Assembly (NCBI GenBank): GCA_030704615.1
Contig: CM060731.1
Location: forward strand, 35,464,001 to 35,528,000
Direction: 5' to 3'
From: Takakia lepidozioides
Lineage: Eukaryota > Plantae > Bryophyta
Length of the DNA stretch: 64,000 nt
The position numbers and the translations under genes are program-made. The notes under the pieces were generated by a model. That model was given only the letters and a program-made list of their open reading frames with translations. It was not told the origin of the DNA and searched no databases. This document shows positions 10,628-55,381 of the stretch, piece by piece; position 1 is the first letter of the stretch; each line of letters starts with the position of its first letter.

Positions 10628-10629
10628 TT

Positions 10630-16841: not shown

Positions 16842-16846
16842 CTTGC

Positions 16847-28291: not shown

Positions 28292-31200
28292 CTATACCTT
28301 TGGATATACTCCAGAAAAGTTTGGAATCCTGTTCAAGTGCTTCAGAGCCTTCTCAGCAAGCTGCTTAGCAGAATTGTTGCCATACCGGAATGAATCAACC
28401 AGAGCAGTATAAACGTTGGGGTCATCTGAGATGAAACAAGCAAGGTCCTCAGTGCGTAGAATCCGCTCCACCATCCACAATGCCCGCTGTCTCAACACCT
28501 CTGTGCGTTTCTCTTGCAAGATCACCAGTATTGGCTGTATCGCATCTGAAGCATATAGCACCTGCAGACATGCAGCCCAATTTCAGGTTTCAAGTACACT
28601 TTTCACTACACAAAGTAGCATTTTAAGGAGCTCACATCAAGAGCATAGCTTCTGAACTTTATGTACAATTTCGTAACAGCAATTTCTTTTGGTTCTAACA
28701 ATTTTATGCAATCTAGTTGCACAGGTGCTTTTAAGCAACACCACGCACCGGTCAAAGTCACATTTCTCATTTTCATAGCAACAAGGCATATGATGGAAGC
28801 ATCACATTCACACAGCCAGAAATCTCACACTGCTTGCATGACATCCCTGGTATGAAAAACTCAGCCCTGGTACTCCAAATGGGTTTGAAGACTGAGATCA
28901 AACCTGCACACCACGCTCCACTTCAACTGTGTCCATGACGAGGGTTGAGAGAGCCCCCATTGCAGCTTCAACAAGGCTGGTATTCCTGTGGTCAAGGCAG
29001 GCAACCAGGGGCCCTATGGCCTGCACTGATAGCAGGCAAAAGGTGCCTCTGGCCGAGCACATGCCCCCATGCACAGAACACATCCCTGCCGGCCGGGTTG
29101 GGCGCTTCTTAATACATGGGAAGCAACTCAGAAAAGATTTTTTTGAAGGGGGAATGTCTGGGATTTCAGATAACTCCTTTGACATTGTCGAAAGATTCTC
29201 CAATGCCTGTGCAGCAGATTCCTGTACTTCCTCCAAACCCGTCGTTTGTAGCAATGAAGTAAACAGAACTGCCATGTTGTGCTCCCTTGCAAGTGAAAGA
29301 ACAGCGGGGTCATCCAACAAAAAGGTGAACCGCAACAGGATGCCCACCAACCCATTCTGAAAAGGGGCCATGTAACGACCAGCACCAATGCGCACAACAC
29401 CCCTTCGAACTTCATCAAGTCTAGTAACAGTAATAGGCAAAGCGCCCTCTTCTAGCAAGGCACGTGTAAGGTAGGTGTCTAGCACAGGCAGATTGGCCAG
29501 CAGGCCAGCTGCAGCTGCCTGTTCCTCCATTACCCCAGTTGCACTCAGCAACTTCACAAGGGTGCCCAGCTGGCGAGTTGTCACCCGCAGGCCATCAGCG
29601 AGCTCCTGTGCCATGTGCATTGAGAGGAGGTATAATAGCCTCACTGACATTACCCGCAAGTCCAACTGGGGGGCTTCTAGGAACTGGATGAGGCTCACAG
29701 TTGCCCCTGCACTCTTGATATGCGAGACTACTCCACTGACCACTTCTGGCCTTGAGGCCAAGCCTACCAACACCTGCACCATAGTATGCAAATTACGTGC
29801 TGTATCTGAGCAGATATTTGAGCATCTTCAAGTATTTCCAAGGTATATCATGACAAAAATCCAAAATGATCCAAGGCTTTGAACTTTGAACCTTTACCCT
29901 CACAAATATGAAAAAAATATGCAATGTAGCTATACACTCCCCCAGATTGAGAGACTGACCTGCAAAAGCTTTGCCTCAATCCCAGGACCACTGTTACTGA
30001 TCAAGTGCAGAAAGTTGTGCACAATAACCTCAGATGTCAGGGTGTTGCCATCAATATCAATTGGACTGCTCTCCCAATGCGCGTCTGAGTTGACCACATT
30101 GGCAAGCACTGTCGCAGACACCTCCTTCAGCTTGACTGAGACTTTGTTTGCACCAACCACAAAGAGATCCCGCATCAATGGAGGGAGTACACCAGTTTCA
30201 ACTAGCAGCTTTCCATTGCTCTCAAGCGTCGAAAGTGCCTTCAGTGCCTTCAATGCTGCTGCCCGTTCTGGAGGACTGTTGCTCCCCAGCATCTCCACTA
30301 ACACACTTGCCACAGTCTCTGCGGCTCGGGCCTTGCCTTCCACTGTCAATGGAACCTCAGCAAGATCTTCTGCCATTTCTACGCGCACCTCCTCTGGACC
30401 TGAACCAGGTTGGAACTACCTCATCAAACACTTCTACTAGTTTGCAGAGAATTCATTGGAGCACTGCCTTAAAAAGCAGACAAAGAACAAGTGCAGTTGA
30501 CATATTGCCAGCTCTTCAAGTCGCAAATATGGAATCCACCAGACTTGAGGTTTGGTGGAATTCAGTAACATCTCAGCAAAGACATGACATTTCGGTTTGT
30601 ACATTATCACTGTCACGATTGTCTTTGCGACCTAACAGTGAACATGGTGGTCCTGAAACAACAGTCTTACCTTCTACCAGCCGTTTGAGTAGTGGATGAA
30701 TTCGTCCATTTTCTGCCATTTGTCGAATAGTATAGTCAATGCGCTCCAGATTGGCCAGGATTTGGTCAGCCTTCACGGCCGCCATCCCATTCTCCAACTG
30801 GCCACTGGTCATCCCCACCAGGATAAGAATGGCACCACTGGTGGCCCCAATCTTCTCACACAGCTGATATGACTTTGACAACTCATACAGCAACAACACC
30901 GCCTCCTCTTGCTCATGTGAGAACCCCCTTGACAAGCACTTGACTGCAGAACGAATCACGTCCGTCTCCCCCATTGCCTCCTGCAACACGATTTTAAAAG
31001 CAGAGGTGTCATGTGACATATGCATGTATTTGATTGATGTGGAAGACAGATTTACTCATGATCATCACCAGCAGTTCTTCCGTACTCATCCCAATCCCTT
31101 GCTAGCAATCTGTCTACTGTCATATTTGCATTCTACTACACCTGTCCAATTCATCCAATCCAACCTGGTAGCTGCATGGTTCAAATCCTTTCCCTGTCGA

Positions 31201-34178
31201 AGGCTATGTGGTTGATTATGGGGCCCCAACCTGGGGTTTAGCCATCACCGCTCGGTGCTTTTGCCCATACAGCTCACTCGCAAATTCTGATAGTAGATCT
31301 CAGCACTCAGTTGGGCACCATCCGAAGAGCACTCAGAGAGGCACATCTAGTGAGGCCCAAAAAATATTGGGAGGTGTTTTAAATATTCATTTGTGTAGAC
31401 ATCTGCTGATTTCTCCATCACCACCATTTTCCTGTCATGATCTTGGGAACTGTTATTAGGAGGATTTCTGGAGGAAAACTAGGCCCCCAGTGGCACATCT
31501 TTGGCACATGAGAGAGTTTGACCCATGTTGAACTGCAGACGAAACACAGCTCTTGGGGCAGACCAAAATGACTGAGTTTGGAGGAACCATTGAGATTAAA
31601 TTTGTGGAGTTGAACCTCCAGAGACGACATGGTTAGAATGTACTCATAGGATGTTGTTTGCCGTAGCCTTGTGGCCATTGACCCCACGCCTAGTTTGAGC
31701 GGAACACAAAAGGGCAGAAACTACCTTTGTCAGGGGCTGATGCCGGTAGTCTGACTTACCTTGAAACAGACAATTGATCCAAGTTTTCCAGATATCCTCT
31801 AGAGATCCTTCACACAAACATCAATCTGCTGTATGTGGTTTGCCCAATAACTAGACCCCAAAAGGGCCTGGGCTTTTGGCTCAGCGATGGTTAGAGATGG
31901 ACGGTGAGAAAGGAAGAAAACAGTACCTTGCTTTCGTCATCATCTTCAGCAAGAATGCGAAGAGTGACAAAGGCACGCGACCGTATTTCCTCCTCCTCAT
32001 TCTTCAAGCAGTTCACAATAAGAGGTATCAGACCTGCATTCCGTATTTTGTACTTATTGAAGTTTTTGCGGCTGACTGTTTGCAAGTCTTTAAGACCATA
32101 CAGTACATCCCGTACTGAGTTGCCTGCTGAAATGAGGGTCCGTGCAATGTCAATGTGAGCCTGTTCATTGCGAGTAGTCCACTCCTCAATCGTGTTGCGA
32201 AGGGCAATGCTGGGCTTCAAAGTGGTACTAACCTTCTGACCAGTCATTGGACACACTGGAGCTCGGCCATTGTCACGACACTCCTGGAACCAGCGCTCAA
32301 TTGCAGATCGCTCATAAGTTTGTGCATTCTCTAAAGTCACAGGGTCCTGCATCACTTGTTTGGTCAGGGGACACACAAAGGCTTCATACAGAGGCTCCAG
32401 CTGATGGTGATCCCTTTTTGGAGTATGAATATCATCTGATGGGCTTGGCTGCTCACTTGACTGCACCCAATTGTCAAAAATATTGCCTATAACATCCATC
32501 ATATGCAGGTCATAAGGCTCCTGTGTGTCATGCACATCAATCCTCAGAAGTTCTATCTCTGTTTTCAGAGCACCAGGATTCCGGGATGCATCCTCTACCC
32601 CAACTTCACGTGCAATATCCATCAATAAGCCTGTTTGCACTGCAACATCCCTGCGAACGCTATCACTGTCTTTTTCTAGTGTCTGGCAGATGCGTTCCTC
32701 AGTCTCCTTCACCTGGTAGTGCACCTGTTGCATGTCCTGAGCCAAGGAGTTAATCAATGTCATTGTGTCCTCTTTGCCCTGCACCGGTGAGAGGCGAATG
32801 AGGCTCAAATTTCGGCCCATAACATGTGTCACATTTTCTATCTGCTTTGCAACCGACCGACAATGGGTGAGAAGATAAATGCGGCTCTTGCTAGTGCACA
32901 AGGCGATGAGCTGCTGCACGCTTTGTACATGTTGGATCAAGGACTCCACCGCATCCTCAACTACAGGTGATTTGATCTCCCCTTTGTCCAACTCGATGGC
33001 AATGGGCCTTATCCGCTTCAAAAATTCTGCTAACTGCCCAAAGTTTTCCTGTTCCACTACCACATCAGATGTTGCCCTGGCGACCTCTGACAAGTTCTCA
33101 AGGAGGATTTGTGCCAGCGACACTTCTGTCGGCTGCTGCATCCTACAAACACCACTCAGCATATCAATTGCCTGAAAAACCCGTCAATATGGTAATTTCA
33201 TGAACGTCAGGTTACTTCCACCTGGTGCTTCTCTTCTAGCTGAAGCCCACAGTAGCTAAATCATGTGCTTAGGAGGTCTAGGACCTGTTTGACATCTATT
33301 AAAGCAGCAAGCTTCCATACAGCAGTGGCCTCTTAGAGAGCCCCTACATGCTATACAAGCCATCAGTGCGCGCCATGTCAGACACCACTTGAATCTCATG
33401 CAGAAAGCAACACATGTCCACAAAAAAAGTAAGATCGACCATCCTTGATAGCAACTATCCAACCTGGGATGTTCCTAGAGCTGCCACCTTTTGCTTACAT
33501 CGAGGCATACTGAACAGAACCTGGCTTCACGAGAAAAACTAGTACAATCACTCCACCAGACCAACTATCACAAAATTTCTGCCATCAGAAGTGTGGCACC
33601 TTCACAACAGGTGCACAACAAGTCTATAAGCAGTTCCAAGCAAAGCTGAGTAATCCTATCCTCCCCTTTGATGTACCATAACATTTGGCTAAACCTGACA
33701 AAATTCATACCTGCAGACTCATGGTAATTCAAAACTAGGTGAACTCAGTCGTATCTCTTACAAGAATTACGACAAACATACACAACCATGTAAGTAATAA
33801 AACGCTAATCTTTCAGGTCCGCCATAACTCTCTCAATCGCGCTCTGGCTGGCACAGGCCAAAGGTGTACATATTTCCCGCAAAAAACTCCTACACCATCA
33901 CCCGGAATGAAACAGAAGCTCTTACCGACGACAGTCATGATTTATCTACTCGCTCTCTCCTTTATACGAGCCATGTTCAGCAGCGAGCGAGGAAGATTGG
34001 TGAAATTGCAAAACCAGCTCTGGGACAATCTGCTTTTCCCCTCTGCCTCACTCACTTCCGTTGTCCCCAGACATTCCTCCGATACTCCTCACACTCCAAT
34101 TAGGAAATCCGAACAAAAAAACAGAATACTTAATGGAATGATGAGAATGGCTCACCTTGTCTCAACCTGCTCGTCCAT
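28292..34178 (-). CDS. Plant U-box/ARM-repeat E3 ubiquitin ligase, SAUL1/PUB43-44-like, with N-terminal extension (about 1042 aa, 6 exons)
   Basis: Exons 34178-34156, 33142-31927, 30980-30671, 30399-29960, 29773-28904, 28561-28292; all introns GT-AG with phases summing to 3129 nt. U-box EPLYEAFVCPLTKQVMQDPVTLENAQTYERSAIERWF..CPMTGQ..LKPSIALRNTIEEW; ARM repeats; C-terminus AEKALKHLNRIPNFSG. Exon 1 is inferred; the alternative start is the ATG at 33141. Confidence 0.92.
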
Positions 34179-36317: not shown

Positions 36318-36830
36318 TGTCGTGTACCTAAGCATCGTGCCTCAACATACTTGCTGTCCATCACACATCCTAAGCATACAATCCTAGAAAACTATGCTAC
36401 AATGATAAAGGAATGGAAACACGCCACTTATGAACCACTCAATTACATAAACTAAAGTCAAGCCAAGAGCACCTTTGCTAAGGGAATCCAACCTACAAAG
36501 CCCTCACCACACTCTCTCTCAATACCTAGAGCTATGGAGGTGATGGAGGCTCAACTACAAGAAGATGAGCCCTCCTCAACCCTCACAAAGAAAAAACCCA
36601 TCCCCATGTCCCAAGTGAGGTTTGACACATGGCATATGAGACCAAATGAAGTCCCAACACACAAAATATAAATATAAATATCTAAAATATCATAGTTAAC
36701 TAGAAGTAGGTAATTCTAGTTAACCATGACTAGAACCATGACAGCTGTCGTGCACATAAGCATCGTGCCACAACATACATCGTTGTCCATCACACATCAT
36801 AAACATACAATCTTAGAAAGCTATGCCACA
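36318..36830 (-). repeat. Putative 3' LTR bounded by ~85-bp direct repeats
   Basis: 36318-36401 resembles 36746-36830; on the minus strand the block begins TG directly after the PPT and ends CA. Confidence 0.55.
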
Positions 36831-37080
36831 ATCGCCCCCCTAGCTGGTGATTATGTCCCTCTAACACCGGATAGCTGACATCCCAGTACGATCATCGCTG
36901 GGTCTTCAATCACACATGTCTCAATTCTCTAAAGTCTATGGATCAAGAGGCAGGGTGCAAAGAGAGCCCCGTCGTTAGTCGCCTACTTGCAATCCATGAT
37001 CTTCAATCAAGTATCCATGGCGTTGAGCTCCCACCAGCTAGACTTTAGATCACTTGTCAACCTCACCATTGTCATGTCCA

Positions 37081-37225
37081 TTATCTCTGTCCAATGCATC
37101 GTGGACACAACCATTCTCCGTTAGGAACCTCCTCAAGTGGCAGTGTTAAGCATCTCATGTGTCACCCCCTTGAGCATTTATCACACACTAGCATGGTGGC
37201 TGCACCACCAGCATGCAACACAACC
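37081..37225 (-). pseudogene. PHD finger (C4HC3) at the integrase C-terminus
   Basis: GLCCML/(frameshift)[36 protein letters not shown]; not in the supplied ORF track. Confidence 0.85.
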
Positions 37226-38200
37226 CTGCAGGTACCACTGCAAGGTTGGGTCTATCCTCCCATCCACATAGAAGGTGACATGGCGCACAATTACGCACAT
37301 GGTCCTTCCATACCATGTCATCTCGACCCTCCAGAATCAACACTCCTGAAGGCAACACCTTTCGTACCCGTAGAATCACATGCCCTGCTGTGATATCCAA
37401 GGTCGTAGGTGTTGTCTGTTGCAGATATACATAGTCCCTAGGGTTGAATCTCCGAACACCCGATCGATATCCGCCTCCACGTATGGTGGCATACCTCAAT
37501 GTGTCTCGATGTTGGGCAATAGCAAGGTTCTCAAAAGCCATAGGCATGACTCTCTTGAATAACTCTGCCCGCTGGTCACACGCTTGTGTCCACACATCCG
37601 GATCATCAAGGTCAAGGACTACTGCAGCCTCCCTGCAAATAGATGCAGCCAAATCTGGCTTTCGGCCTGAAAGAAGAAAGTAAAGTAAGAATAAGGCAAA
37701 TGAAGCTTGTTTGCTTAACCTATAGCCCATAGCCAACCAAGGCAGTTGAAGGACCCAATCTCCCAGGTGTCCTTTCTGCAAACCGTACTTGCGCAAACCC
37801 CTTTTGACTGTCTGAACAACTCTCTCCGCCAAGCCATCGGCATCGAAATGATCCCGAGAAGTAGTGCAGTGGTCCATTAAGGCTTGCTCACACAAAGCCT
37901 GAAACTCCCCCAAGAACTCTCTCCCCTGGTCCGTGAGTACCTTGGCTGGAGCATCAAATCGGCTAAGAACTCGATTTAAGAATGCATACGCAACCCCCTC
38001 ACTTGCCTTGTCAGGCAATGCCACCAGTTCAATCCATTTGGAGAAGTGTTCCACCATCACCAGCATAGGCCCCGCCACCAGTACTGCCCTTGCAGCAAAG
38101 TATGAGTGTGTCGCACCCCAAAATGTCCCAACTCCTCATGGGCATGGCGTACCAGTCGCGCTCTTTTTGTTGGATGAGGCACAATTCTCACTCGTCCATC
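37226..38200 (-). pseudogene. Retrotransposon integrase (partly deleted)
   Basis: HEELGHFG..YWW, then a deletion, then VMVEHFSKWIELVAL..VLTDQGREF..DGLAERVVQTVK. Confidence 0.9.
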
Positions 38201-38529
38201 ATCCCATATTCGGAGTAGGTGAGTCCCCTCCTACTTGAACCTCTTGGCTCGTTGCAAGATCCAATCTCTCTCCTTAGCAGTCACACTGACTGTCATCTCT
38301 CTGGTACGAAGGTAGGCCAACGCTGCTGCATCTTCATGCACATCCTTAGCACCACCCAAGCTCTTCATTAATCTCTAGATCGTCATGCACACTAGCTACA
38401 TGACCAATCACATGAGATGGACCAGCTTGAGCTCCCATTGCTAGAATGCACAAAAAGACAGATGCATGCCATCCTGGCACTATCTTCTCATCCGTCTCAC
38501 CATACCAACGAGCTCTTGTATCATCAAGC

Positions 38530-39900
38530 TCACTAGTGCATGGATTGCGACTCAATCCATCCGCATCCCGATTGACTATACCGGCTCGATGTACCACCTG
38601 GAAGTCATACTCTTGAAGCAGAAGTGCCCACCGTGCAAGCTTCCATGTAAGCTTGTCCGACTCCATCAACCACTTCAATGGTTGGTGATCCGTGACAAGG
38701 GTGAAGAGATTGACATAGAAGTAGCATCTAAATGAGTCGCTGCCTATACTGCCGCTAGACACTCTCCTTCATATGAGCTATACTTTGCCTCAACATCATT
38801 ATTTGAGCAGCTAGTATATGCCACTACGAACTCTCTTCCCTCATCATCCACCTGTGTGAGCACTGCTCCAATCCCCAACATACTCCAATCCGTATGTAGC
38901 TAGAAAGGCCGCCCCCGAATAGGCCGCCTCAGAATAGGTACAGAAGTCAATCGAGCCTTGAGTTCTTCAAAGGCTTCCTCCTGCTCATCTTCCCACTACC
39001 AGTCCTGACCCACCTTGGTCAACTTGGGAAGAGCCTTTGAAATGCTACTAAATCCCTTGACAAACCGTCGATAATAGTTTGTCAACCCCATGAAAGCACG
39101 AACTTTGCTTATATCTATGGGACGTGAAATGTGTGCAATGGCCTCCACCTTTGTCTGTTGAACACCCAATCCTCCAGGATATGTCATGTGGCCCAGATAC
39201 TCAATCTGATCGTGGAAGAACTTGCACTTTTCATGGTGCAGTTTCAATCCATGCGCCCTCAAACGCTCAAACACCACCTAAAAGTTTCTCTTATGCTCCT
39301 CAACCATGGCACTAAAGATGATAATATCATCAATGTAGCACCGGACGAAGTCTAGCCCTGCAAAAATCCTATCCATGACCCTCTGAAACTATGCAGGAAC
39401 GTTCTTCAACCCAAATGGTAGGAAGCGCCATTGGTACAAACAATCCTTCTCATGCTGGTCAATCCCCCAGAATGTCGTCTGTTGCTTGTCAGCCTCTTTG
39501 ATTGGCAATTGGTGGTAACCAGATCGCAGGTCCAATGTGCTAAACACCTTTGCATACCCAATGGCATCAAAGATCTCCTCTGGAGTTGGCATGACATATC
39601 TATCGGACTTAATCTGACGATTCACAAGACGATAGTCCCCACACATCCTTCTTTTTGTCCAATTGCCACAGATATCCTTCTTAGATGGCATCACCATTGC
39701 CGAGGCATACTCCCCGCCTGACAACTCCACCAATCCAGCTTCGAACAACTTCATAGTCCGTGACTAGATCAAAGACCTCTCCATGTCAATATACCTGTAG
39801 GGCCTTCGAAAAATTGGCGTGTCATTTGCCAAATCAATACGAATCTCCTGGCCCTTCAAGCTCCCCAAATCCTTCAAACCCAAGGCAAAGCAATTTCTAT
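38530..39900 (-). pseudogene. Reverse transcriptase and RNase H (Ty3/gypsy type)
   Basis: [36 protein letters not shown] (about 39326-39337), YLGH, FMGLTNYYRRFV, LHTDWS..IGAVLTQ, LVTDHQPLKWL, ADGLSR. Confidence 0.93.
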
Positions 39901-40389
39901 AAGCCCTTAGACATCGCCAGATCCTCCGTCTCTCTCATCCAGTGACTGTAAGTTCAACATCCGGTTCCCAATTGTCCTCTGTGACTGCAACTTTGGGTAC
40001 ACAAGGCTTGGAGGTAGGAGACGCGTCCTTTGGTTGCTAGATAGCAACCTCTTGGGCCTTATCTGCCCAACCTGACTGTGGCGTAGCCTCCACTTGCTCT
40101 GCCATAGCCACCTTGAGAACATCCTCTATGCAAGAAACATTCTCAATCTCTTCAAAAACCTTAGTCATCTTGGCCTCCAACTGGTCCTCAGTGTATGGCT
40201 CTCCCCACTCCTCATACTACTGCTTGAGAGATCCAATGACTCTCTCTTTGTGCATCTCATCCCACATCTGCCATGGGTGTTTCACCCCACGATCCTGTGA
40301 TCGTGCCCACTCATTGCCTCCACTATCCCGGTTGGCAGAGATGGTGCAATATCCAATGGAAGTGCAGAAGTAGCCACCAATGCTTGCAA

Positions 40390-41360
40390 TCTCCTTTGCT
40401 CAGCCATGCACAAGCCAATAACCCATGTCAAGCAATTTAGATCCATTGCTTGACCCAACACCTGTCAGCGTGATGCCTCTGACCAAGCTGACACAGCTGT
40501 AGTGCCCGCAGCAAACCCCATTGCCCGCTCTCGCTCCTCCGCAATTGGCTCCACCAATTGTTATAGCGCATTGTCCCAAATCAACCCTGGACCATTGTCT
40601 CGAAAAACATGAGACGAGGGAAAATTCATGAGTGTAGGCAAGGCCGCACGTGGTTGCCCCACTTGATTGATCACTGCCAAAGGTGGATGGTCATCATGTT
40701 ACACTCTCTGTGGTTGCCTCCTTTGGTCCAAAATGCCCTCAACCGTGAGGTTGGGTGGCCGTTGAATGGAATCATAGGCTCTCTTGAGCAACTTTGGTGG
40801 TGCAAGATTGGTCCACCACAACCTAGGCCTATGTGCCCGTGAACCCACTGCGGCTGCATCTAGTAATACAGCTGGTCCAATCCAAGACCGCACCCGATGC
40901 ACACTAGCCATAACCCTGGCCCGAGAATCCCCTATAAGAGGAACATTCTCCAAGATGTAAGCTGGAGGTTTCATTTGTCTTACCTGCAAGTCACGCAATA
41001 CTCGCAACATCTCCCAAAACAGATGCGATCGTGCATCATGTAAACCATTACCATGACCTGCGGGAGAATGTCCTTGGCAAGACCATCCAGCTATCACCAA
41101 GTCAATGGCACCATGCCGGTCCAAATTATCCGCCCCCAGCAAGGTAATGTCTGTTGGCAATGTCTTCCTTGAATTGCTGAAAGATGCAACAACTCAGGAT
41201 ACTGACGTATGAGTAAGGCAACATGACGCATGGAAACACGCCGAGCAATCTCATCCTTCTCCATATATAAATACTTGCATACTTTTATTCTTGCTTGCAA
41301 CACTCTTGCAAGCCTACTGCTCATGCCTCTAAACAAGTCTAGCAAACAAATGCCTGAGTC
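40390..41360 (-). pseudogene. C5-cytosine DNA methyltransferase domain (DNMT3-like) within the retrotransposon polyprotein
   Basis: Motif I LLDLF[R]GMSS[R]L; II YLYMEKD; IV DLVIAGW[S]CQGHS (Cys codon 41077-41079); V DARSHLFWE; VI ILENV; VII/VIII LDAAAVGSRAHRPRLWWTNL; IX EERERAMGF..GTT; X R*QVLGQAMD. Confidence 0.88.
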
Positions 41361-41829
41361 AGGTTATTGTCAGATAATAGGCACTGTGTCCAATGGAGCT
41401 AACTGAGGAGGTCCAGGTGATGTGATCACCAAACTTCCCTCACCCACCGATGGAAATGCCTCCTGCCATGCTTGCTGCACACACTGGCTTGCCACTCGCT
41501 GCAAATCCCCAACTGTACCCCACAGTGAGCTATGCACAGGCATATGAGGAAGCAACTCAGCATTGTATGCCAATTGTTTGTCCTCATCAGGTGGTGGCAT
41601 ATCATCTGCATGGCTATTTCCCTCCAAGAGCTCGTGTTGCTGCTCGAGTGACAGCAGCAGCAGAGTCCAGTACATGCAATGGCCCTGCAAGTGCGGCTCC
41701 ACACATGAACTAGCCCATACCAATCTGGTCTTCCCTAGGCATAGAAGGTTGTGCAGGTGGGGCTTGAACCTCAGGCCTTGGAGCTGGCGCAACATGAGTA
41801 GTGGCCATGGCAGCAAGACGTTGCTTTAG

Positions 41830-42682
41830 CTGGGCAAGTCTCTCCACCATGTCTTGGTCATGACCTTGACCTTGACCATGTGTTCATTGGTTTTGGTTAC
41901 GACCTCCACCACGACCTCTGCCTCCTCTATCTCTCTAGACTACATTGTCTCGTCCTCGGGCACCATTGTTCCCTTGGAACTGGCCTGCCGTAGCTCAGGA
42001 TGCAAGTCATAACAATGGGCCTCCTCATGCCCATACTTGCCACAATACCCACATTGTAATTGTGTAGGTTGTGCCTCTGTCGGCCTTTTGCCTCTCTCCG
42101 GGCAATCCTTCTTAACATGAGGTCATCCACAATCCCAACAAGTTACACCCGACTGTTGTTGGCCTGAGAATGAAGGAAGATACCTCTGCATCTGAGATCC
42201 CCTTTGTCATTCACTGGGCTTCGTCTAAGCCTCCTTGTTGCTTTGAGCACGTTAGGGTAATGGCTGTTGTTGGCTTGGAACTCCACTTCGTTGTGTCTCT
42301 TTGCCAAACCCCACCATAACCACCCGTTCCTCCACCATATTGAGTTTTATCCGCTCTGCCAACAAAAACACATTTGCTGAGGTGGGTGGGGCCACTTGTA
42401 GGAGAGTTGTATCCCACACCTTTCTCCTCAGTTCATTGTCCATGATCCCATACCAGAACTGGACTGCCTGAGCTTATGTAACCCCTTAGGTTACGTTTAT
42501 CAAACGCCTCATGCGAGTGTAAGCCTCCCTCAAACTCTCAGTAGGCCTTCGTTGGAACTCTTGCAAGCTCCGCAACTTCTCTGTCCTTATCCCCTGGTAG
42601 TTTCTTCTCAACTCCTCGAAGAACTCCACAATTAAATTAAAGGCGGGCACGGGCGATGGTGCTGAAGCAGGGATGGATGCTA
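41830..42682 (-). pseudogene. gag C-terminal part with two zinc knuckles
   Basis: PAFNLIVEFFEELRRNYQG..LQEFQRRPTESLREAYTRMRRL; CWDCG*PHVKKDC (about 42101-42142); CGYCGKYGHEEAHC (about 42011-42055). Confidence 0.8.
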
Positions 42683-44143
42683 GATCGTGAGCGGTGAGCC
42701 TATGCTCATGTAAGTGGTGCTGCCTTAGGATTTTGCAAAAAGATACTGTACGCATTTCCGCGGATGGCACCCATATCCGTTGGTAGGATGTCCCTATAGG
42801 CATGCTAGTGACAAGGATATGAAGAGCACAGTTGTCAAGGATCCAATCCATTGTTGCAATATTGACAGTGGGCACAATAAAGATTAGTAATTAAGGGGAA
42901 AGTAGTATAGTGGATGGATAGGGTTCTTTGGGGTTTCCTTAGGTTTTTTAGGATTTTTTTCCCTGTAGATACCACAAATTGTTTTTCTTGTTTTTTCGGG
43001 TTTTTCGGGTTTTTAGGGTATTCATAGGCGGTTCTTAGGGTTTTATTTTCCCCGCAGATGCTACTAAAAGTGGTGTGCGATGTCGCACACTCAGGGGAGT
43101 TTTTTTTAGGGGTTTTTTTAGGGGTTCATTAGGTTTTTCTTAGGGTTTTCTTTTAGTGTGCAGTGCCCTGAAAGAGGTGTGCGGTGCCGCACACCCCTTT
43201 TCAGGGATTGTTTTTGTTGGGTTTTTTTAGGGTCTTTAGGGTTTTTTTAGGGTCTTGTTTTGAGTGTGCGGTGCCACTTAAAGAGGTGTGCGGTGCCGCA
43301 CACCCCTTTTCATAGGTTTTTGTTTTTTTTTTGGGATTTTTCTTAGGGTTTTTTAAGGTTTAGGGTTTAGGGTTGTTTTTAGTGTGCGGTGCCACTGAAA
43401 GAGGTGTGCAGTGCCGCACACCCCTTTTCAGGATTTTCTTTTTCTTTTTTAGGGATTGTTTTAGGGTTTTTAGGGTTTTTTTAGGATTTTATGGGTTCTT
43501 AAAGTATTTTTAGGGTTTTGTTTTTACTATGAGGTGCCACTGAAAGAGGTGTACGGTGCAGTACACCCCTTTCCAGGGTGTTTTTTTTTTTTTTTTTTTT
43601 TTTGGGATTTTTTAAGGGTTTAGGGGTTTTTAGGGTTGTTTTTTCTTACTGTGTGGGCCACTGAAAGAGGTGTCCGGTGCCGCAAACCCCTTTTTCAGGT
43701 GTTTCTCTTTCTTTTTGGTGGTTTTTTCGGCGTTTTGTTTTTTTTTTTTTGTTTTTTTCCTTGAGATGCCATTGAAAGTGGTGTGCGGTGCCGCACACCA
43801 CTTTCAGGGGATATGTTTGTGGAGTTCAGGTTTGGCAATTGTCACTCAAAATGGTGTTGTCTTGTTTGCAATATGCAGCTTTGGTCAACAATTGACATTC
43901 ATATCTATTCATTGAAGCCATGTGCTCTTCTTTTATAATAGGGTCTAATTTCATCAAACTGTACATGCCTATTCCCACGGTTATAGGTCCAGCGGGAATA
44001 AGTACTATTTCTTCGAACGCCCGTCTTGTGGTATTTGCTGACATGGCCTTCGCTCGTGCTGGCATCAGCTCACACTGACGTGGCTCGAGCGTGGGCTCAG
44101 GCCACGTCAGCCCCGCATGAGCATGTGCTCACCGCTCACGCCG
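42683..44143. mobile_element. TA-flanked non-autonomous TIR element inserted in gag, carrying a hairpin/TTTAGGG repeat array
   Basis: TIRs CGTGAGCGGTGAGCCTATGCTCATG / CATGAGCATGTGCTCACCGCTCACG (23/25); TA at 42681-42682 and 44144-44145; removal restores the local gag frame (..GAT-LASIP..). Confidence 0.8.
43060..43810. repeat. Seven-copy array of a ~38-bp palindromic core separated by T-rich, TTTAGGG-like spacers
   Basis: CTGAAAGAGGTGTGCGGTGCCGCACACCCCTTTTCAG near 43064, 43168, 43277, 43395, 43540, 43661, 43771. Confidence 0.9.
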
Positions 44144-44600
44144 TAGCGTCGCTCCTGCAGAAGGGGCTTAAGTGGATATCCTAGCTCCTGTACCACTTGT
44201 CCCACTACTAGTGCTTGTAGTTGGGGATTTGTGTTGTTGTATGCTGCTGTGTTATGTTCGTCCTCGCTGCTCTTGGTGTCGTCGACTGCTCTTGTGCTCT
44301 GGTGATGGAGATATAGTCAGGTGACCAATACTCCCGCCATTCCTCAATCTCCATCTTATATCACCTCCTCGTATCAATCTAAACTCATGGTAATCGTCTA
44401 TGGGCTGAAACAGCCCATTTCCCGCCACAAAAGACGTAAACAATTGTGGATTGTGCATTTGTTTCAAATAACACAAACTATCGAACTTCTGTATGAAGTC
44501 ATCAAGCTCGATGGTGCCCATAGCTCCAGAGTACTTACGTGGCCCCTTGGTAGCTCCATACATCTCCTCCATCGTGTCCCACAATAATGGCACGGAAATG
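44144..44600 (-). pseudogene. gag N-terminal part of the DNMT retrotransposon
   Basis: GPRKYSGAMGTIELDDFIQKFDSLC..LFQ; continuous with 42682 across the TA insertion. Confidence 0.65.
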
Positions 44601-46333
44601 GCTTACACCCTCGGCGAGAATCCTTCTAACTCCGAGTCTGAACTTTCCTGAGAAGACACTGAAGGTGAAGGTCGCCTGAACCGCACACCTCGTCTCGTGT
44701 ACCCACTAATATCGCTGGTGTTTGTACCCGCACTTCCCTCGGCAACTCGTGGCACCTCCGTGATGAAAAACTCCAAAACCACACGGGTGTAAACCTGTCT
44801 CTAATCCCCCTTCCACAAGGTAACTGGGCAGAGAACCTGTTGCGGCTGGTGGTTCAAGCAGAAATACTAGATTTCCAACGTAGACCTGTACCTGCACCTA
44901 CATCCACCGCAAACACTCTAAGAGAAACAATGATGGTCTGACTGGTCATCACCCCAGCTTCACCACCGACAGCACGCTCTAGGATTGGCCGGTGATTAAA
45001 TCCGGACCAACCTCCTATGAAAACAAACGCCCACACAAAACTGACATGGCACACAGTCAAGCATGCAGGTGTGGAGGGGATCCAAACACAAGAAAATCAA
45101 ACGGTACCCCCCCCCACATCAAAAATACTCCACAATGTCGCTCCTGTTAAGAAACCCAGCCCAAAAACTGGACTGACTCTTGCCTCCACCTACGGAAAGG
45201 TTTTGGCCTACAGAAATGGTGGAAGACTACAAGGAAGAGAGACTAAAGCAATTCCTACCACAACATGCTCTCATCCCACTACCCTATCTCCACACTTTTT
45301 TACTTAAACAATAGACAAGACCTTTCAAGGTCTCTTAATAACACTCTTAAGAGCCCTCAAGATGTCCCTCAAAAACAATCTCACTAAGGCTCCCAAAGCT
45401 TGCACAATGGTACTCCAAACAGTACACCAAGGCCCAAGAGCTGCCAAATCTGGCCCTCAAGGATCCCCCAATAATCCTTCAACAAGTCGCAAAGACTCCT
45501 CAAGCTCGCCAAATATCGGCCTCCAAGGACCCCAACAGCCCTCCAAACAGCCTTCCAAAGGCTCCAAAAACTTGTCAAATATTGGCCTTCAAGGACCCCA
45601 AATGGTCCTCCACATAGCCCTCCAAAGGGTCCAAAGACTTGCCAAAACTTGGCCTTCAATGACCGCAAATAGTCCTTCAAACAGTCATCCAAACACCTCT
45701 TCAAGAGCTCTTCAAAGTGGCTTACAAAAGCTCCTCAAAGTGTCTTCCAAAAGCTCCTCAAAAGACCCCAAAGATCCCCCAAACAAATCATCCAAAGGCC
45801 CTTGAAAATCCTCCAAAACATCCTATATTGTCCTTACATGTCACTATATACCAAGCCTATAGTGTCCGTTCCCATACTACGGTGACCATTTCCACACTAT
45901 AGTGACGGTTTCCATGAGTCTAGGGTTTCACGTGCATCTCATGCTAGGGTTTGTACAGTTCAAGCTAGGGTTTGGGCTTCCTTGAGCTTCATGCTTTTAT
46001 TCCTCAAGTATCCATGACTTCTATGGGGTACCAATGCAAACTACCTTGATCTTCTTCACCTCAAGCTACAACCAAGCTTGGTTCCAACTCACCTAGCAAT
46101 GCATTTGCTACAAACCAAGCTCTCTTGCTCATAGGAATTCGAACAAGACATTCTACCCCATTGGCAAGCATCAAAGCATTGCTCCCCTTTGGCTTTTGTT
46201 TACGCTCCTACATGCACTCTTCTTGGCCATTCACATGCATAATACACCTCTTAGCTTCAAGATGTTGCTTTCATTTATGGTAACAAGAACCAACACATTG
46301 CCACTTTATGCAAAAGAAGAGTTTTCAACTATT

Positions 46334-48459: not shown

Positions 48460-49180
48460 TGTCGCGGCCCTTTGCCTTGAGGGCAGGGGTCGTCGGGACA
48501 CATGAGGGGCTGCCCCTGTGGTGGGGGGCGGCAGCGATAGGTATGGGGGGCTGAAGCACCCTTGAGTGCCCAAGGCACTCAAGGAGGCGGAGGCGCTCAC
48601 TAGGTGGAGCCCCGCACACCGGGTTGCGGTGGAGGTGGCTCCACAAGGGTGGTGGTAGCTTAGTGGGACTTAGGGGGGTGGCATAGGACTCACCATGGGG
48701 TGGAGACCTCGAGGTGGGAGTCGTGGGGAGTCTTGGGACTCATCACGGTCCATTGGGGCCGCGGTGAGTGGGCCAAGACTCACCGCGACTCACCACCGGA
48801 GTCGAGGGTTTTCGTGGTGGTTCGCCATAAAATGGCATGGCTGGTTATGAAACCCCCGCGGACAGCTACAGAAGTATATATAGGGAGTAGTAACCCCGAG
48901 AACGGTGCAAGCCCGTTGGTGACCAAAAACTAGTGAGTAAGCGAGCGAGCCGGAAAGCGACCAAAGAGTGGGGAGCTGTTCCGGACTGCCATCTACCAAA
49001 GGGAATTCTCCTAGTCCCAAATAGGTGGAGGGTTTAGAGGGAAGCGGAAGGGGACCGTTATGTCCCGGTGAGCAGCCGAAACTCCAAGTTGGCCCGGCGG
49101 CCAGGTTGGGAGTCAGGCGCGCGCATCAAAGCGAGTAACTATGACTTGAAGGGGAGTTTACCGAACTGAGGTGTGCGACA
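48460..49180 (+). repeat. 5' LTR, copy 2
   Basis: TG...CA; near-identical to 54659-55381. Confidence 0.95.
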
Positions 49181-49235
49181 CTTGGTATCAGAGCTTAGAG
49201 TTCAGTACGCGATCGTCCTTGGGATTGGCCTCATC

Positions 49236-52200
49236 ATGGGGTCGGGCAAGCCGAAGCGAAAGCGGAACGGCCCAAAAGATGATGATCCCGGTGAGCCCGA
49301 TGGGGGCGACGTGTCACCGAGGCGGCCGTTTGAGGAAGCGATTAATGTTTCCGAAAACGAGGCCGCTCAGGAGCGGGAGGAATCCGAGGAGTCGGAGCCC
49401 GAGGAATCTTTGAGAGCTCCGACAAACCAAGAGATGCCTCCCATGCCGGCAGCCTTTTGGGAAGGGTTGTTGGCGCAGTTTGGCGGGACGTTGAAAGACG
49501 TGTTGAAGGCGGCTAATGCCACTTCCACTAAGGCAAAGTTTAAGGTGAAGCCTAAGGAACCCGGCACCTTCGAGGGCGTTCGAAACCGGAAGGCACTCAA
49601 CACCTGGCTCCTGGAGCTAGAGCAGTACTTCCGGGCGGCCAAGTTGAGTGACGAGGGAGGATGGAAGTGGCTCCCACCTATTTGAGGGGCTATGCTCAAC
49701 AATGGTGGCAGAAACGCCTTCACGACCGAGGCCCAAGCCCGGAAACCTTGAACTGGAGTGGGTTCAAGGAATTGATGAAGAGACAGTTTGTGCCCCTCAA
49801 CGCATCCTGGCTTGCCCGGGACAAGATGAGGAATTTGAAGCAAACAGATGACATTCGGGGGTATGTCCAGGCTTTCAATGTGCTGTTGCTCGAAGTCGCG
49901 GACATGGCAGAACCAGAAATGGTCTTCAACTTTGTGGCGGGACTGGCCCCATGGGCAGGCGGAAGTTGGAGGAGAAGCCACCCAAGACTTTGAACGAGGC
50001 AATTGAGAGAGCTGAATGTTTCGGATGTCCCTAGGGGTGAGAGACAAGGCCGTACGGAGCTGAACCACAAGAAGACCCGGCGGGAAGGTGACTCCTTCCG
50101 ACCGGAAAAGAAGTGGGATAGGCCACGCGGCGAAAATGGCACGTGGAAATCGAAGGGAGGCCTTCACACGTCAAGGCGGCACCCGGTGCTTCGAAAGGAA
50201 AAGCGGGTGGAGGCTTATGGCGGACAGAAGGCGACCTTTGATGGAGTGTGTTTCAATTGCGGGGAGCCCGGGCACATGGCCAAGAAGTGCACGAAGCCCC
50301 GGCAATTGAACATGACTCGGGCGACCACGGAGCTGTCGGAAGATACCATCAGTCGCTTGGTGGAAGCGGTGGTCGCCAGGACTTGCAAGGTAGGCAAATT
50401 TTCTTGTGAGTTGTATCAGGAAACTGGCGCCTTACGAAAAGGGAGTCAGTTATTGTTCGTGGATGGGATAATATCCGGAACTAATGTGTCGTTGTTGGTG
50501 GACACAGGAGCGTCGCACTCCTTCATGACGTCGGCGGCGGCGCGAAAGTTGGGACTCCCGACAAGTGACGTGGGGGCCTCTATTGAGGTGCGCTCTGCCA
50601 AAGGAGAACCTCAGTTGGCGACAAGGTTGGCGTTTGATGTTCCTCTTCAACTGGGGAGTTGGGAGGGACGTGAGAACTTCACTATCTGCGAGATCGATGG
50701 AGTGGATCTCATTTTGGGAATGACCTTTTTGAGCAAATCCGGAGCGGTCATAGATGGCCGCAAGAGAGTAGTCACGCTGCCATGTGGGAATGGTGGCGAG
50801 GTTTTACGAGTGTCGGAAACGCCCAAATCCGTGGGAGGGCGAATAAACCTTCTATCAGCAAAGGAGTGGGCCGTGGAGGAGACACACGAGTCCCAGTTTT
50901 TGCTTTACATAGAGAAGTGAAAGGAGAAGGCGATGGGGAGCCGAGCCCAGATTGGATCAAGGGGATTTTGGAGAAATACCAGGATGTGATGCCGGAGGAT
51001 TTACCAAGCGGGCTGCCACCGCGAAGAGGAGTTACCAAGCTTGCCAAGAGGGAGTTGACCACAAAAGAGGGTGATACCGGGATCGGAAGCCAAAGAGAGT
51101 TGGTCGAGCTGAAGACTCCTCAAAGATCTAGTCAAAGGGGTACATCCGGCCGAGTCACCTTACGGAGCCCCGGTGCTATTTGCAGACAAGAAGGATGGGA
51201 CGCTGCGGATGTGTGTCGATTACAGGGTCTGAATAAGGTGACTATCAAAAACCGGTACCCTTTGCCAAGGATCGACGACCTCGATCGGTTGGCAGGGAGC
51301 GAAGTATTTCAGCCGGATCGACTTGCGCTCCGGCTATCACCAAATTCGGGTGGCGGAAGGAGATGAGGAGAAGACCGCGTGCAGGACAAGGTATGGTTCA
51401 TATGAGTTCTTGTGATGCCTTTTGGGCTCACCAATGCACCAGCGACATTTAGCACGCTGATGAACAGCCTTTTCCAGGAGTGGTTGGATGACTTTGTGAT
51501 CGTGTACATCGACGACATCTTGGTGTACTCGAAAACAAAGGAGGAGCACCTGGAGCACCTCAAAAGGGTGTTCCAAAAATTGCGAGAAGGGAAGCTGTAT
51601 GCCAAAGCTTCAAAGTGCGAATTCGGGGTCACAAAAGTGGAGTTCTTGGGGCATGTGATTACACAGGATGGGATCAAAATGGATGACAGAAAGGTGAGGG
51701 CGATCTTGGACTGGGAGCCTCCGACTTCGGTCCCGGGAGTGCGATCCTTCCTAGGACTCGCCTCCTATTACCGGAAGTATGTGAGAAATTTCGCCAAGAT
51801 CGCGGGGCCGCTGTCGGACCTTCTGTGTAAATCCAAAGTCTGGGTATGGAACACATTTTGTGGCCAAGCTTTTGCTGAATTGAAGCAGCGGATGACGGAA
51901 GCTCCAGTCTTGAAATCCCGGAGTTCGATCGTCCGTTTGAGATTCATACAGATGCATCGGACTTCGCATTGGGGTGTACTTATGCAAGATGGACGTCCAG
52001 TGGCTTACGAAAGTAAGAAACTGAATGAAGTGGAGCGACGGTGGCCGACGCACGAAAAGATGAAGGCGGTGGTACATTGCCTTGAACTCTGGCGCCACTA
52101 TGTTGGTTCCAACCCAGTGAAGGTGTTCACGGACAATGTCACGGTGAAGTATTTTGCCACGCAGCCCAAGTTGTCCCCAAAACAACTTAGGTGGCAAGAT

Positions 52201-53757
52201 ACTTTGGCAGTGTTCGACGTGGATATCCAGTACAAACCGGGACGGACAATGTGGTGGCCGATGCTTTAAGTAGAAAGCAGCAGCTCTTGTTGGTGTACAA
52301 GGGCGAGAGGCGCTCCAAAGGAAGATCCGGAAGGCTTGCCGGAAGGATGAGCTGGCAAGTGGTGATGCAGGACTTGAGAATGGGGGTTAAATCGCAGTTC
52401 CACTTGCAAAACGGACTGCTCCGGTATAAGCAAAACGTCTCTATGTGCCAAAGGGAGGGATCAGGGATAGTCTCTTGAGAGAATGCCATGATAGCCCGCT
52501 TGCGGGCCACGGTGGAGCCAAGCGCACTGCGGCACTCTTGAAGAAAGAGTATTTCTGGCCCAAACTGAGGGAGGAGGCAGAGGAGTATGTAAAGACATGC
52601 ACCACATGCCAACAAAACCGGAGCGAGTACAAAAAGCAAGCGGGGCTGTTACAACCCTTGCCGATTCCAGAGGGGACTTGGGAAAGCGTCTCGATGGATT
52701 TCATGACTGCTATGCCGCTGTCAAAAGGATTCGATGCAATCATGGTGGGTAGATAGGTTCAGTAAAATGGCCCATTTCATCCCCACCAAGGAGACGGCAA
52801 CGCGCAGGAGACAGGGCGACTTTACTTCGCCCACGTCTTAAAGCATCATGGAGTCCCGAAGGATATTGTCTCGGACCGCGACCCAAAGTTTACGAGTAAA
52901 TTCTGGAGAGCACTTTGGAAGAAGATGGGGACGAGGCTGAAGATGAGCACCGCCTTCCGACCTACGACGGACGGCCAAACGGAAAGAGTGAATTCCGTAG
53001 TGAAGCAATTCTTGCGGAATTACGTGTCGGCAGACCAATCAGACTGGATGGAACACTTAGACGCGGCAGAGTTCTGTTATAATAACACAGAACACTCCGC
53101 GACGGGAGTTTCCCCTTTGTGTTTGGTCTATGGAAAAGCACCTCTGGTGCCGACAAGTTGGGGCCGCCCAGGACGTTGAGGAACCGGCAGTAGCGGCGGT
53201 ACTGGAAGAACGCGAGCGTTTGTTGAAGCTCGCAAAGTACAACATTGCCAAAGCTAGGAAACGGTATGAAAGGCAGGCGAATCGGAAGCGGAGGGAAGTG
53301 AAGTTTGAGGCAGGCACAGAGGTCTGGTTGAACATCAAGAATTTTCGACTACCTCCGGAAGTGAGTCCGAAGTTCGTACCTCCGTATGCGGGTCCCTTTC
53401 GCATTCGGAGGGTTATGAATGAGGATGTGTATGAATTGGAGCTGCCCAAACAGCAAGGTGCACCCAGTATTCCATGTCTCCCTTTTGAAGCCTTACTTCA
53501 AAGATGAAGCACGTCCGAATCGGCAGCAAGTGTTGCGTCCGCCACCTATGCTGTTGGATCATGAAAATGAACCCGAGTACGAGGTGGAGGCAATACTTAA
53601 GTCGAGGAGGTTCAAGAACCGAGAAACGGAGTATCTCGTCAAATGGAAGGGCTATCATCTTGTGGAGGCATCTTGGGTGCGTGCCTCAGAAATGGGAAAC
53701 GCATCCGAGGCAGTTGCAGCGTTCGAAGGGCGACCTCAAAAGCGGAAGAAGCGTTGA
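49236..53757 (+). pseudogene. gag-pol polyprotein, copy 2 (frameshifted as assembled)
   Basis: [23 protein letters not shown], RNase H, integrase and chromodomain motifs as in copy 1. Confidence 0.92.
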
Positions 53758-54658
53758 TGGGGACATCAACCTTGGAGCGTGGGGAGGAAATGCATGCTTA
53801 GCCCGTTTAGCTAGCTCAGGAATCCGATTGCAAAAACTTGTATTGTACAAAAATTTGTGATAAAGGAAATGGGTTCCAAATATTGTGCGTCCTATTGTGT
53901 TTGGAATGGTGATGCATGGTGTGGTTGGCTGTGTGTAGAATGCATGCTAGCTTACAAAAGTGGGAGAGGTAAATTGGGTTAATCGTGTGTTTGCGCAGTG
54001 CCGAAATCGGGTGACTCCCATCCAAGGGGCAAGGAAACTTGCGCCTTATTTGGGAGTTCATGCTAGTGCGCACCTGGCGCGTGCGCGTACTATAACTGCG
54101 CTACCGAGGGGGTTGCCTTGTAGTGCGGGCTAACGCGGAAGCTACGTGCTTCCGTTCACGTACTATAATCGTGTAGCCTCGGGACGAAGTCGTAGTGCGG
54201 CTTCGGCGTGTTCCCGTACCTCAGGCCAGCATTCCAAGGCGGACCCAATTGTAGTGATTGGGGCGCACGGTTGGTTCAAGGTTATCTTCCTAGTCAAAGA
54301 GGGTTCCAGGTGAACCCTTGCTCAAGGTGATGCCAAAAGCGGCATCATGAGCGATCGCAAGCAATGTTGTTGCAGTAAGGCGATTCGATCCTCGGGGAGG
54401 ATCGTTCCTTGGCCTTGAAGTAGGCCAAGAAGAGTGCACTGGGAGGAGCTGGAGAGGCTCCACCCTTGGCCGGGACTTGGAGGAAGTCGGCCGAACTAGC
54501 TAGTGGAGAGTGGAGTCAAGTGTGGGGTTTGGTTCTTTGCCATGGGACGCCATGGTACGGAAACAAACTCCTTGATGTGGGACGCCACAACTTGGATGTT
54601 CGTTTCTACAAAATGGACAAGTCGATGAGGACATCGACTCCCTGTTGGTAGGGGTGTG

Positions 54659-55381
54659 TGTCGCGGCCCTTTGCCTTGAGGGCAGGGGGTCGGGACACAT
54701 GAGGGGCTGCCCCTGTGGTGGGGGCAGCGGCAGCGATAGGTATGGGGGGCTGAAGCACCCTTGAGTGCCCAAGGCACTCAAGGAGGCGGAGGCGCTCACT
54801 AGGTGGAGCCCCGCACACCGGGTTGCGGTGGAGGTGGCTCCACAAGGGGTGGTGGTAGCTTAGTGGGACTTAGTGGGGGTGGCATAGGACTCACCATGGG
54901 GTGGGACCTCGAGGTGGGAGTCGTGGGGAGTCTTGGGACTCATCACGGTCCATTGGGGCCGCGGTGAGTGGGCCAAGACTCACCGCGACTCACCACCAGG
55001 AGTCGAGGGTTTTCGTGGTGGTTCGCCATAAAATGGCATGGCTGGTTATGAAACCCCCGCGGACAGCTACAGAAGTATATATAGGGAGTAGTAACCCCGA
55101 GAACGGTGCAAGCCCGTTGGTGACCAAAAACTAGTGAGTAAGCGAGCGAGCCGGAAAGCGACCAAAGAGTGGGGAGCTGTTCCGGACTGCCATCTACCAA
55201 AGGGAATTCTCCTAGTCCCAAATAGGTGGAGGGTTTAGAGGGAAGCGGAAGGGGACCGTTATGTCCCGGTGAGCAGCCGAAACTCCAAGTTGGCCCGGCG
55301 GCCAGGTTGGGAGTCAGGCGCGCGCATCAAAGCGAGTAACTATGACTTGAAGGGGAGTTTACCGAACTGAGGTGTGCGACA
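54659..55381 (+). repeat. 3' LTR, copy 2
   Basis: Followed by TSD ACCTA. Confidence 0.95.

Follow-up and report, generated by a model that had tools for sequence, protein, structure and literature searches.

A methyltransferase-bearing Gypsy element in a moss genome

The DNA analyzed here is a 64,000-nt stretch of the moss Takakia lepidozioides (GenBank assembly GCA_030704615.1, contig CM060731.1, forward-strand positions 35,464,001 to 35,528,000), referred to below as the window and numbered from its first letter. Positions 36318-44600 on the minus strand are a decayed copy of a Ty3/gypsy retrotransposon that carries a DNMT3-like C5 cytosine DNA methyltransferase (DNMT). Read on that strand, the element encodes gag with two zinc knuckles, the methyltransferase, reverse transcriptase (RT), RNase H (RH), integrase (IN) and a PHD finger. 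A first-pass annotation, made from the sequence alone, had listed these domains in the same place and order, and Pfam and motif searches agreed with it.

The DNA_methylase profile (PF00145) matched at 40699-41193 (E 2.9e-11), within the 40390-41360 segment for which the annotation had proposed a C5-methyltransferase. We also obtained matches to RVT_1 (E 7.4e-10), RT_RNaseH (E 1.1e-9), rve (E 8.7e-10) and, at 37084-37200 with one stop read as X, PHD (PF00628; E 4e-11); the Retrotrans_gag match was weak and under the Pfam cut-off (E 0.0016). The Pol order RT-RNase H-integrase, with an integrase of the DDE type, is that of a Ty3/gypsy element. Gag is present in the window, and the aspartic protease, deleted there, is present in relatives. 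A chromovirus was ruled out by the PHD finger, rather than a chromodomain, at the integrase C-terminus, and a DIRS or other tyrosine-recombinase element by the rve integrase and by 4-bp target duplications in relatives. A scan of viral contigs gave no match for the window element.

We then compared each part with relatives, designated by P numbers for proteins (e.g., P0003 from Marchantia) and L numbers for 72 metagenome loci. All coding parts lie on the minus strand. Behind 5' untranslated family sequence at 44573-45400 (-), where the summed sequencing depth is high up to 45400, the limit of the stretch compared, the N-terminal part of gag occupies 44295-44572 (tblastn, P0003 aa 1-94, 54-64% identity), with a frame change near 44370. 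Its C-terminal part, with the two zinc knuckles and 6 stops, is at 41991-42650 (P0003 aa 132-354, 52%; the weak Retrotrans_gag match). The methyltransferase follows at 40390-41360, then RT and RNase H at 38502-39976 (RVT_1, RT_RNaseH and tblastn; YIDD at 39326-39337) and the DDE integrase at 37191-38356 (rve). The PHD finger forms the integrase C-terminus at 37084-37230; its start is damaged and it contains one stop, and L016, L026 and L033 have the full domain.

The window copy is dead, as the first-pass annotation had held, given its stops, frame changes and lost integrase codons. The main DNMT frame contains 3 stops in 264 codons and a frame change near 41160, the linker-RT-RNase H frame contains 9 stops (one of them conserved in the family), and ~58 integrase codons are gone at 38066, where aa 1098 of P0026 abuts aa 1157. 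Further damage had escaped the annotation. A deletion of ~1.0 kb, with its junction at 41621-41634 (-), took out the aspartic protease: P0003 aa 355-785 found no match, and the knuckles are 643 nt from the DNMT versus ~1,636 nt in relatives. A secondary insertion of ~1.5 kb, foreign to the family, interrupts gag at 42686-44140. Alignment of its inverted repeats revealed inverted ends together with seven copies of a 52-nt repeat (family D15); its summed depth is 516-3,419 versus 10^4-10^5 alongside, and one contig links 42650 directly to 44172, skipping it. No target duplication was recognised around this insertion. Its 52-nt repeats are hairpin-like and stand 104-145 nt apart, with A-rich linkers between them. 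Lastly, the 5' repeat of the element is missing or unrecognisable.

The methyltransferase domain is DNMT3-like

In the window DNMT, the motifs LDLFRG, EKD, GWSCQ, ENV, HRPR, ERERAMGF and LGQA stand in canonical order from motif I to X. Motifs I and IV carry substitutions; the catalytic Cys is retained. The domain spans 956 nt versus 966 nt in relatives and so contains no intron, in line with the earlier description. It is 63-70% identical to bryophyte relatives and 41% identical to KFL_009030040 of the charophyte alga Klebsormidium nitens.

The best Protein Data Bank (PDB) sequence matches of the intact DNMT of L033 were DNMT3A/B/C, and its predicted structure (predicted local distance difference test score 85.5) matched DNMT3A/B with an E of about 1e-15, with about 22% structural identity to animal DNMT3. 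As judged from the modeled fold of this relative, the enzyme domain is DNMT3-like, as had been proposed from its motifs. Among the best 150 of 513 cluster representatives from a wider search (see below), the catalytic Cys is present in 150/150, the RxR of motif VIII in 149/150 and a DNA-type EN at motif VI in most. Comparison of the window DNMT with four related loci gave a rough ratio of nonsynonymous to synonymous substitution rates (dN/dS) of 0.12-0.17, indicating that the DNMT is under purifying selection. The RT dS was saturated in distant pairs.

The methyltransferase is a trait of a green-plant Gypsy lineage

A protein search with the window domain returned 47 matches, 20 of them named and at up to 68% identity: Marchantia polymorpha (13), Calypogeia fissa (2), Sphagnum (2) and Closterium (3). 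In many of these named matches, the domain is joined in one protein to gag, protease, RT or integrase. A profile search added KFL_009030040 of K. nitens, with the architecture protease (PR)-DNMT-RT-RH-IN, and a Tetradesmus deserticola protein with the order RT-RH-DNMT-IN-PHD. No vascular-plant source was present among the named matches, both searches being word-limited. An unindexed search yielded 513 clusters at E up to 1e-30, and Scenedesmus and further Closterium proteins were identified among 10 cluster representatives that we looked up. In the best 150 of the 513 clusters, the DNMT lies after RNase H in 97 and before RT in 9; the other 44 are too short to tell. A metagenome scan with a single protein query found nothing, and an alignment query then gave the 72 loci, of which 51 (36 distinct at 98%) have the DNMT before RT.

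Marchantia has at least five full-length proteins of the first open reading frame (ORF1; Gag-protease-DNMT), 95-98% mutually identical and annotated as hypothetical, and four Marchantia frames of 1,278-1,281 aa are unbroken and match every motif pattern searched. Mp4g09160 is one Marchantia gene whose DNMT domain is unbroken. In a sequencing run of the host species, 27,407 contigs mapped onto the element. The summed depth, which is not a copy number, was 64,000-119,000 over the DNMT versus 55 for a flank contig, and this excess indicates that many copies carry the domain. The methyltransferase is thus almost certainly a family trait and not peculiar to the window copy, judging by these comparisons. 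The first-pass annotation had treated it as an integral part of the element, and it occupies the same position in dozens of loci and several species.

We built DNMT and RT trees with FastTree; outgroups were limited, and those of the DNMT tree were only bacterial-type. L063 was excluded from the alignment labeled A2 because of stops in its frame. The window copy fell with bryophyte sequences in both trees (support 0.99 for DNMT and 0.97 for RT), and both trees separated the two domain orders. Grouping with K. nitens elements had a clade support of 0.945 in the DNMT tree and 0.60 in the RT tree, with few outgroups. In the DNMT tree, L019 clustered tightly with a Sphagnum protein. The window element probably belongs to the KnitGypsy-Dnmt3 lineage, which would thereby extend to land plants; persistence of the Klebsormidium lineage in land plants had been conjectured beforehand, and the bryophyte proteins and trees support it.

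Marchantia and Sphagnum-type elements are about 70-75% identical to each other in the DNMT, and either is 64-68% identical to the window copy. Given that the window host is a moss, this points to parallel sublineages of old standing or to horizontal transfer between bryophytes. The second order, RT-RH-DNMT-IN-PHD, has long open frames in L051, L053-L058, L061-L063, P0135 and P0247. It is found in chlorophytes, namely in the Tetradesmus deserticola transcriptome and in Scenedesmus sp. PABB004.

A conserved stop codon follows the methyltransferase

An in-frame stop lies at the DNMT/RT boundary of the window copy (40037-40039, minus strand) in the context UAG-CAA-CCA (40031-40039). In 35 of 39 DNMT-before-RT sequences, the window included, alignment of the family showed an in-frame stop (TAG in 25, TAA in 10) with CAA directly after it between DNMT and RT; the remaining 4 have variants at the stop position. 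The annotation had described the methyltransferase as collinear with the polyprotein; the conserved stop splits DNMT from RT, so that the two do not form a single uninterrupted polyprotein. Consistent with such a boundary, 27 of the 28 full or near-full ORF1-type proteins of the clade that we listed end 55-147 aa past the DNMT, and the other ends at 171.

Three sequences, namely the window, L015 and L033, show the full UAG-CAR-YYA, given in the accessible text of PMC11166343 as a type I readthrough context; the background for CAR-YYA is 32 of 7,707 TAGs in these loci. From the arrangement of frames, DNMT is likely made at Gag levels, and Pol by readthrough or re-initiation. Our literature search found no paper linking the CARYYA context with a retrotransposon. 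From two sequencing runs presumed to be of RNA came incomplete contigs of divergent sequence, which carry no information on expression.

The PHD finger sits at the end of the integrase frame, and the DNMT at the end of the Gag-protease frame, ahead of the conserved stop. The coupling of reader and writer that had been suggested at first is therefore doubtful. The PHDs of L016, L026, L033, P0033 and P0135 have Gly instead of Trp two residues before the zinc-binding His. We take this to mean that they have no aromatic cage for H3K4me3, as would fit a reader of unmethylated H3K4.

Split ends and an internal palindrome

The 3' block of the window copy is made up of a polypurine tract (PPT), B1, J, A2 and B2. 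On the minus strand, the PPT is at 36832-36845, with the same context ahead of B in related loci, and is followed by repeat B1 (36746-36831), which ends in CA and is identical to B2 at 75 of 86 nt. The palindrome J (GACA-GC-TGTC) lies at 36740-36749; the same pattern is seen in L019, L033, L038, L044 (with an AT spacer) and L061. Repeat A2 occupies 36403-36743 (-) and is covered by contigs of other copies, and A is found at both ends in L019, L038 and L052. Repeat B2, recognised by comparison with B1, forms the right end of the element at 36318-36402 (-), with CA at 36318. The TG..CA block of the first-pass annotation does exist; it is really B1-palindrome-A2-B2, not a plain long terminal repeat (LTR).

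The complete layout, A1-coding-PPT-B1-J-A2-B2, was observed in relatives L038 and L052. Relatives begin with TGTCA and finish with GACA, and the both-ended ones have TG/TC...CA ends and a perfect 4-bp target duplication (5/5 loci). J corresponds to the right end of the element fused to its left end and was seen in 6 sequences, including L061 of the second domain order. Instead of two equal full LTRs and a tRNA primer site, we found ends of the form A...B-J-A-B. By its sequence, the element is filed as Gypsy on account of its enzymes, with atypical ends. In the window, BLAST gave no match for a 5' copy of A1 or B, and there is no TGTCATG upstream; the best local alignment for A1 scored 37 versus a maximum of 32 in 10 shuffles and was not accepted.

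The sequence just after A1 was complementary (9-16 nt) to A positions 160-171 in 8 of 13 5' ends, a level reached by 0-2 of 200 shuffles. Reverse transcription is thus likely to be self-primed, as far as this complementarity can tell. No such site was found in the window copy, which has no complement to A of 11 nt or longer. Together with the 4-bp duplications of relatives, the split ends suggest that the integrase likely opens joined cDNA ends at the internal site J.

A short form ending at B alone accounts for 7 of 11 3' ends. We considered it as the product of a one-LTR circle and dropped this idea, since L021 and L044, with a common flank and different end forms, are one locus in two forms. 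At L029:14234-14514 and L032:5538-5818, a truncated A is fused to B with primer-site sequence kept between them, a structure like an aberrant end-joining product.

Proposed replication route and alternative explanations

We favor, with moderate confidence, the explanation that the element represents an old green-plant Gypsy lineage whose fixed DNMT likely methylates the element's own new DNA before or around integration. ORF1 would yield Gag-protease-DNMT in bulk, making DNMT an abundant particle component. RT-RNaseH-integrase-PHD would come from occasional readthrough of the leaky stop or, in Sphagnum-type copies, from re-initiation at the following ATG. Self-primed, Tf1-like reverse transcription would give a linear cDNA with a true repeat B+J+A. 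Its ends would be joined at an A|B junction and the integrase would open J with a 2-nt stagger, which would leave TG...CA ends and a 4-bp duplication and account for the permuted form A...B-J-A-B. This DNA would be the substrate of the DNMT, whose target is probably CG, as in DNMT3 relatives; the new copy might then look like host DNA or stay quiet from the start. The PHD would ride on the integrase and most likely help to pick the insertion site, separately from the DNMT.

Here we infer enzyme activity, substrate and integration route, and our confidence differs among them. That the DNMT is catalytically active in live copies is probable. That the element's own cDNA is the main substrate is slightly more likely than not, and we rate the joined-end integration route the same. 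The fullest version is, in our estimate, less likely than not: an unnamed Gypsy superlineage whose age would match that of green plants and which would have been active in Marchantia until recently, combining end-joined cDNA opened at an internal palindrome with a DNMT3-type enzyme at Gag stoichiometry that methylates it, possibly with the CG at the cut site deciding the junction.

A number of observations weigh against this explanation. In the host species' run, the summed depth was lower over the DNMT (64,000-119,000) than over RT (218,000-307,000), which may reflect faster divergence of the DNMT or copies without the domain. The retained motifs are uneven: among the best 150 of the 513 clusters, FxGxG at motif I is found in only 16 and ECQ at motif IV in 81, so the S-adenosylmethionine (SAM) loop appears unusual across much of the wider family, and the metagenome loci were chosen by motif IV and VI patterns, which biases their motif counts. 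For selection, dS values of 1.7-2.3 are near saturation and make dN/dS rough, and close Sphagnum-type copies gave a dN/dS of 0.34-0.83. CG depletion in the window DNMT (observed/expected 0.49) is the same as in a host exon (0.50) and hence no signature of self-methylation. With regard to expression, 31 of the 39 stops read CAA-CCC followed by ATG or ATGG, only 3 of 39 have the full readthrough hexamer, and Klebsormidium-type proteins lack such a stop and continue into RT. The A-B-J-A 5' form was seen in 0 of 13 5' ends though a joined circle holds two J sites, and a plain circle model leaves this single permutation unexplained. The short A...B form could equally be a product of recombination between the B copies or of collapse during assembly, and it gives the circle no independent support. 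In addition, the Klebsormidium Gypsy domain was inactive in yeast, a result that its authors called inconclusive (PMC5890265, accessible text).

The main site of DNMT action might instead be the nucleus, where its targets would be host chromatin or copies already integrated rather than particle cDNA, with self-silencing or an altered host methylome as the result. Protease-released DNMT at Gag levels could enter the nucleus, and de Mendoza et al. (PMC5890265) named slower transposition as a possible role; the DNMT, however, moves between ORF1 and Pol yet always within polyproteins, as would fit a particle role, and the Klebsormidium methylome is not unusual according to the accessible text of that paper. 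We consider a mainly nuclear role unlikely. A related proposal, which we regard as improbable, is that the DNMT acts on the CG lying immediately inward of the right attachment site (CACGACA), and that this mark controls which J the integrase cuts. It would explain why only one permutation was observed. A CG stands beside J in the window, L019, L033, L044 and L061, in both domain orders, with deamination products in decayed copies, and DIRS elements, which likewise have split repeats, carry methyltransferases too. The CG may, however, merely belong to the integrase recognition site, and Gypsy-7a of Chlamydomonas, in the part of its description available, has a PHD and an asymmetric LTR without a DNMT among its listed domains.

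The negative yeast result for Klebsormidium and the unusual motif I of most wider-family members also fit a domain kept as a nucleic-acid-binding or RNA-methylating module that methylates no DNA. The near-invariant Cys and RxR, the mostly DNA-type EN and the modeled closest folds, DNMT3A/B, speak against such a module and make it, in our estimate, quite improbable. Hardly credible is a one-off capture of a host DNMT3 fragment by the window copy. The DNMT has the same position in dozens of loci from several species, it has no intron, and no host DNMT3 was present among the named matches; its identity is 41% to the Klebsormidium retrotransposon domain versus the about 22% structural identity of L033 to animal DNMT3. 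Of the outcomes that the first-pass annotation had listed against itself, those open to test were the reverse of what we found: a methyltransferase match exists, other copies carry the domain and an intron is absent.

Relation to known systems

Earlier work described DNMTs carried by retrotransposons in K. nitens and in Symbiodinium (PMC5890265; de Mendoza et al., 2018, from its accessible text, as throughout this paragraph), with activity shown only for SymbioDIRS-Dnmt3, as de novo CG methylation in yeast. KnitGypsy-Dnmt3 of K. nitens is, like the element described here, a Gypsy whose Dnmt3-like domain is unpermuted, has no intron and evolves under purifying selection. It also has a DIRS-like layout, A-coding-B-A-B (Fig. 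4 legend), which is complete in L038 and L052 and of which the window retains the 3' half. KFL_009030040, at 41% identity, is in the same DNMT clade and may be one of that paper's copies. In contrast to KnitGypsy-Dnmt3, the element has a land-plant host, a stop that parts DNMT from RT where the paper puts DNMT in the Pol ORF, and a C-terminal PHD, a word absent from the accessible text. Because the stop is conserved in 35/39 sequences, we regard the element as a variant of the KnitGypsy-Dnmt3 lineage rather than the same family. That text gives no replication mechanism for the KnitGypsy split ends. SymbioDIRS-Dnmt3 likewise combines a Dnmt3-type domain with A-coding-B-A-B repeats, but it is a tyrosine-recombinase element, unlike the present one with its DDE integrase (rve) and the 4-bp target duplications of its relatives.

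A PHD within a Gypsy polyprotein is also known from Chlamydomonas, in Gypsy-7a_cRei and further PHD-bearing elements of the Gypsy type (bioRxiv 10.1101/2022.06.16.496473). In the accessible part of that report, Gypsy-7a_cRei is active with an intergenic bias, its left LTR ends 8 bp short of its right one, whose final 8 bp it lacks, and, unlike here, no methyltransferase is among its listed domains; we liken the two by description, not by sequence. With its putative primer site, which would pair with 5' RNA of the element itself rather than with a tRNA, the element resembles the self-priming chromoviruses Tf1/Sushi and Tcn1 (PMC6317226, accessible text), from which it differs by a PHD in place of a chromodomain, by its split ends and by an RT far from that of the window's own chromovirus. 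The foamy-virus integrase cuts a palindromic end-to-end LTR-LTR junction into processed ends (PMC1180852, accessible text), much as we propose for J; in that virus, two ordinary LTR ends meet to make the junction, whereas here it is encoded inside the element.

A 2025 survey names only "streptophytes and dinoflagellates" for retro-DNMTs (PMC12344493, accessible text). According to an opinion paper, land plants such as tracheophytes lack transposon-encoded DNA methylases, a loss from which it develops a hypothesis (PMC6338049, accessible text). Our literature search found no report of a retro-DNMT from bryophytes or of the chlorophyte order, with most subscription journals and Repbase outside its coverage. 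No land-plant retro-DNMT was found in the accessible texts of PMC12344493, bioRxiv 2021.11.30.470311, PMC11982613 and PMC6317226, supplements being outside coverage, and "Marchantia" is absent from three supplementary files of PMC5890265. What the present sequence comparison shows is that the range includes land plants, that a conserved stop follows the enzyme and how the ends are built.

So far, the question of why a transposon carries the enzyme that hosts use for transposon silencing has been confined to experimentally difficult algae. Intact frames in Marchantia polymorpha, which offers genetics and methylation mutants, make it testable. An unusual route of integration is suggested by the split ends and by the attachment palindrome inside the element. 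Standard LTR finders would overlook elements with such ends or set their boundaries wrongly. These frames may also have been counted as DNMT genes in bryophyte genomes. If both the circle and the methylation are true, the lineage would provide an integrase-using LTR element that works via a circle and has its own epigenetic writer in land plants.

Neighborhood of the element

The host gene nearby is a five-exon U-box/ARM (PUB43/44-like) gene at 28295-33153 (-), 56-59% identical to Sphagnum, Marchantia and Riccia proteins; its closeness to bryophyte proteins corroborates the embryophyte host that had been deduced at first. In the tree of this gene, exon B groups with moss PUB44 and exon A is unresolved. 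A chromodomain-bearing Gypsy is present in three copies that are 90-94% identical, at 9909-16845 (+), 48460-55381 (+) and 57322-64000 (-). Its LTRs are about 730 bp; those of the middle copy are 98.9% identical, with a 5-bp target duplication. A further Gypsy-like fragment lies at 18373-19636 (-), a LINE-type zf-RVT fragment at 7010-7672 (+) and a tandem array of 32-42-nt units at 25378-25713. The ORF at 21397-21810 (-) has no Pfam match and resembles part of a Harbinger transposase.

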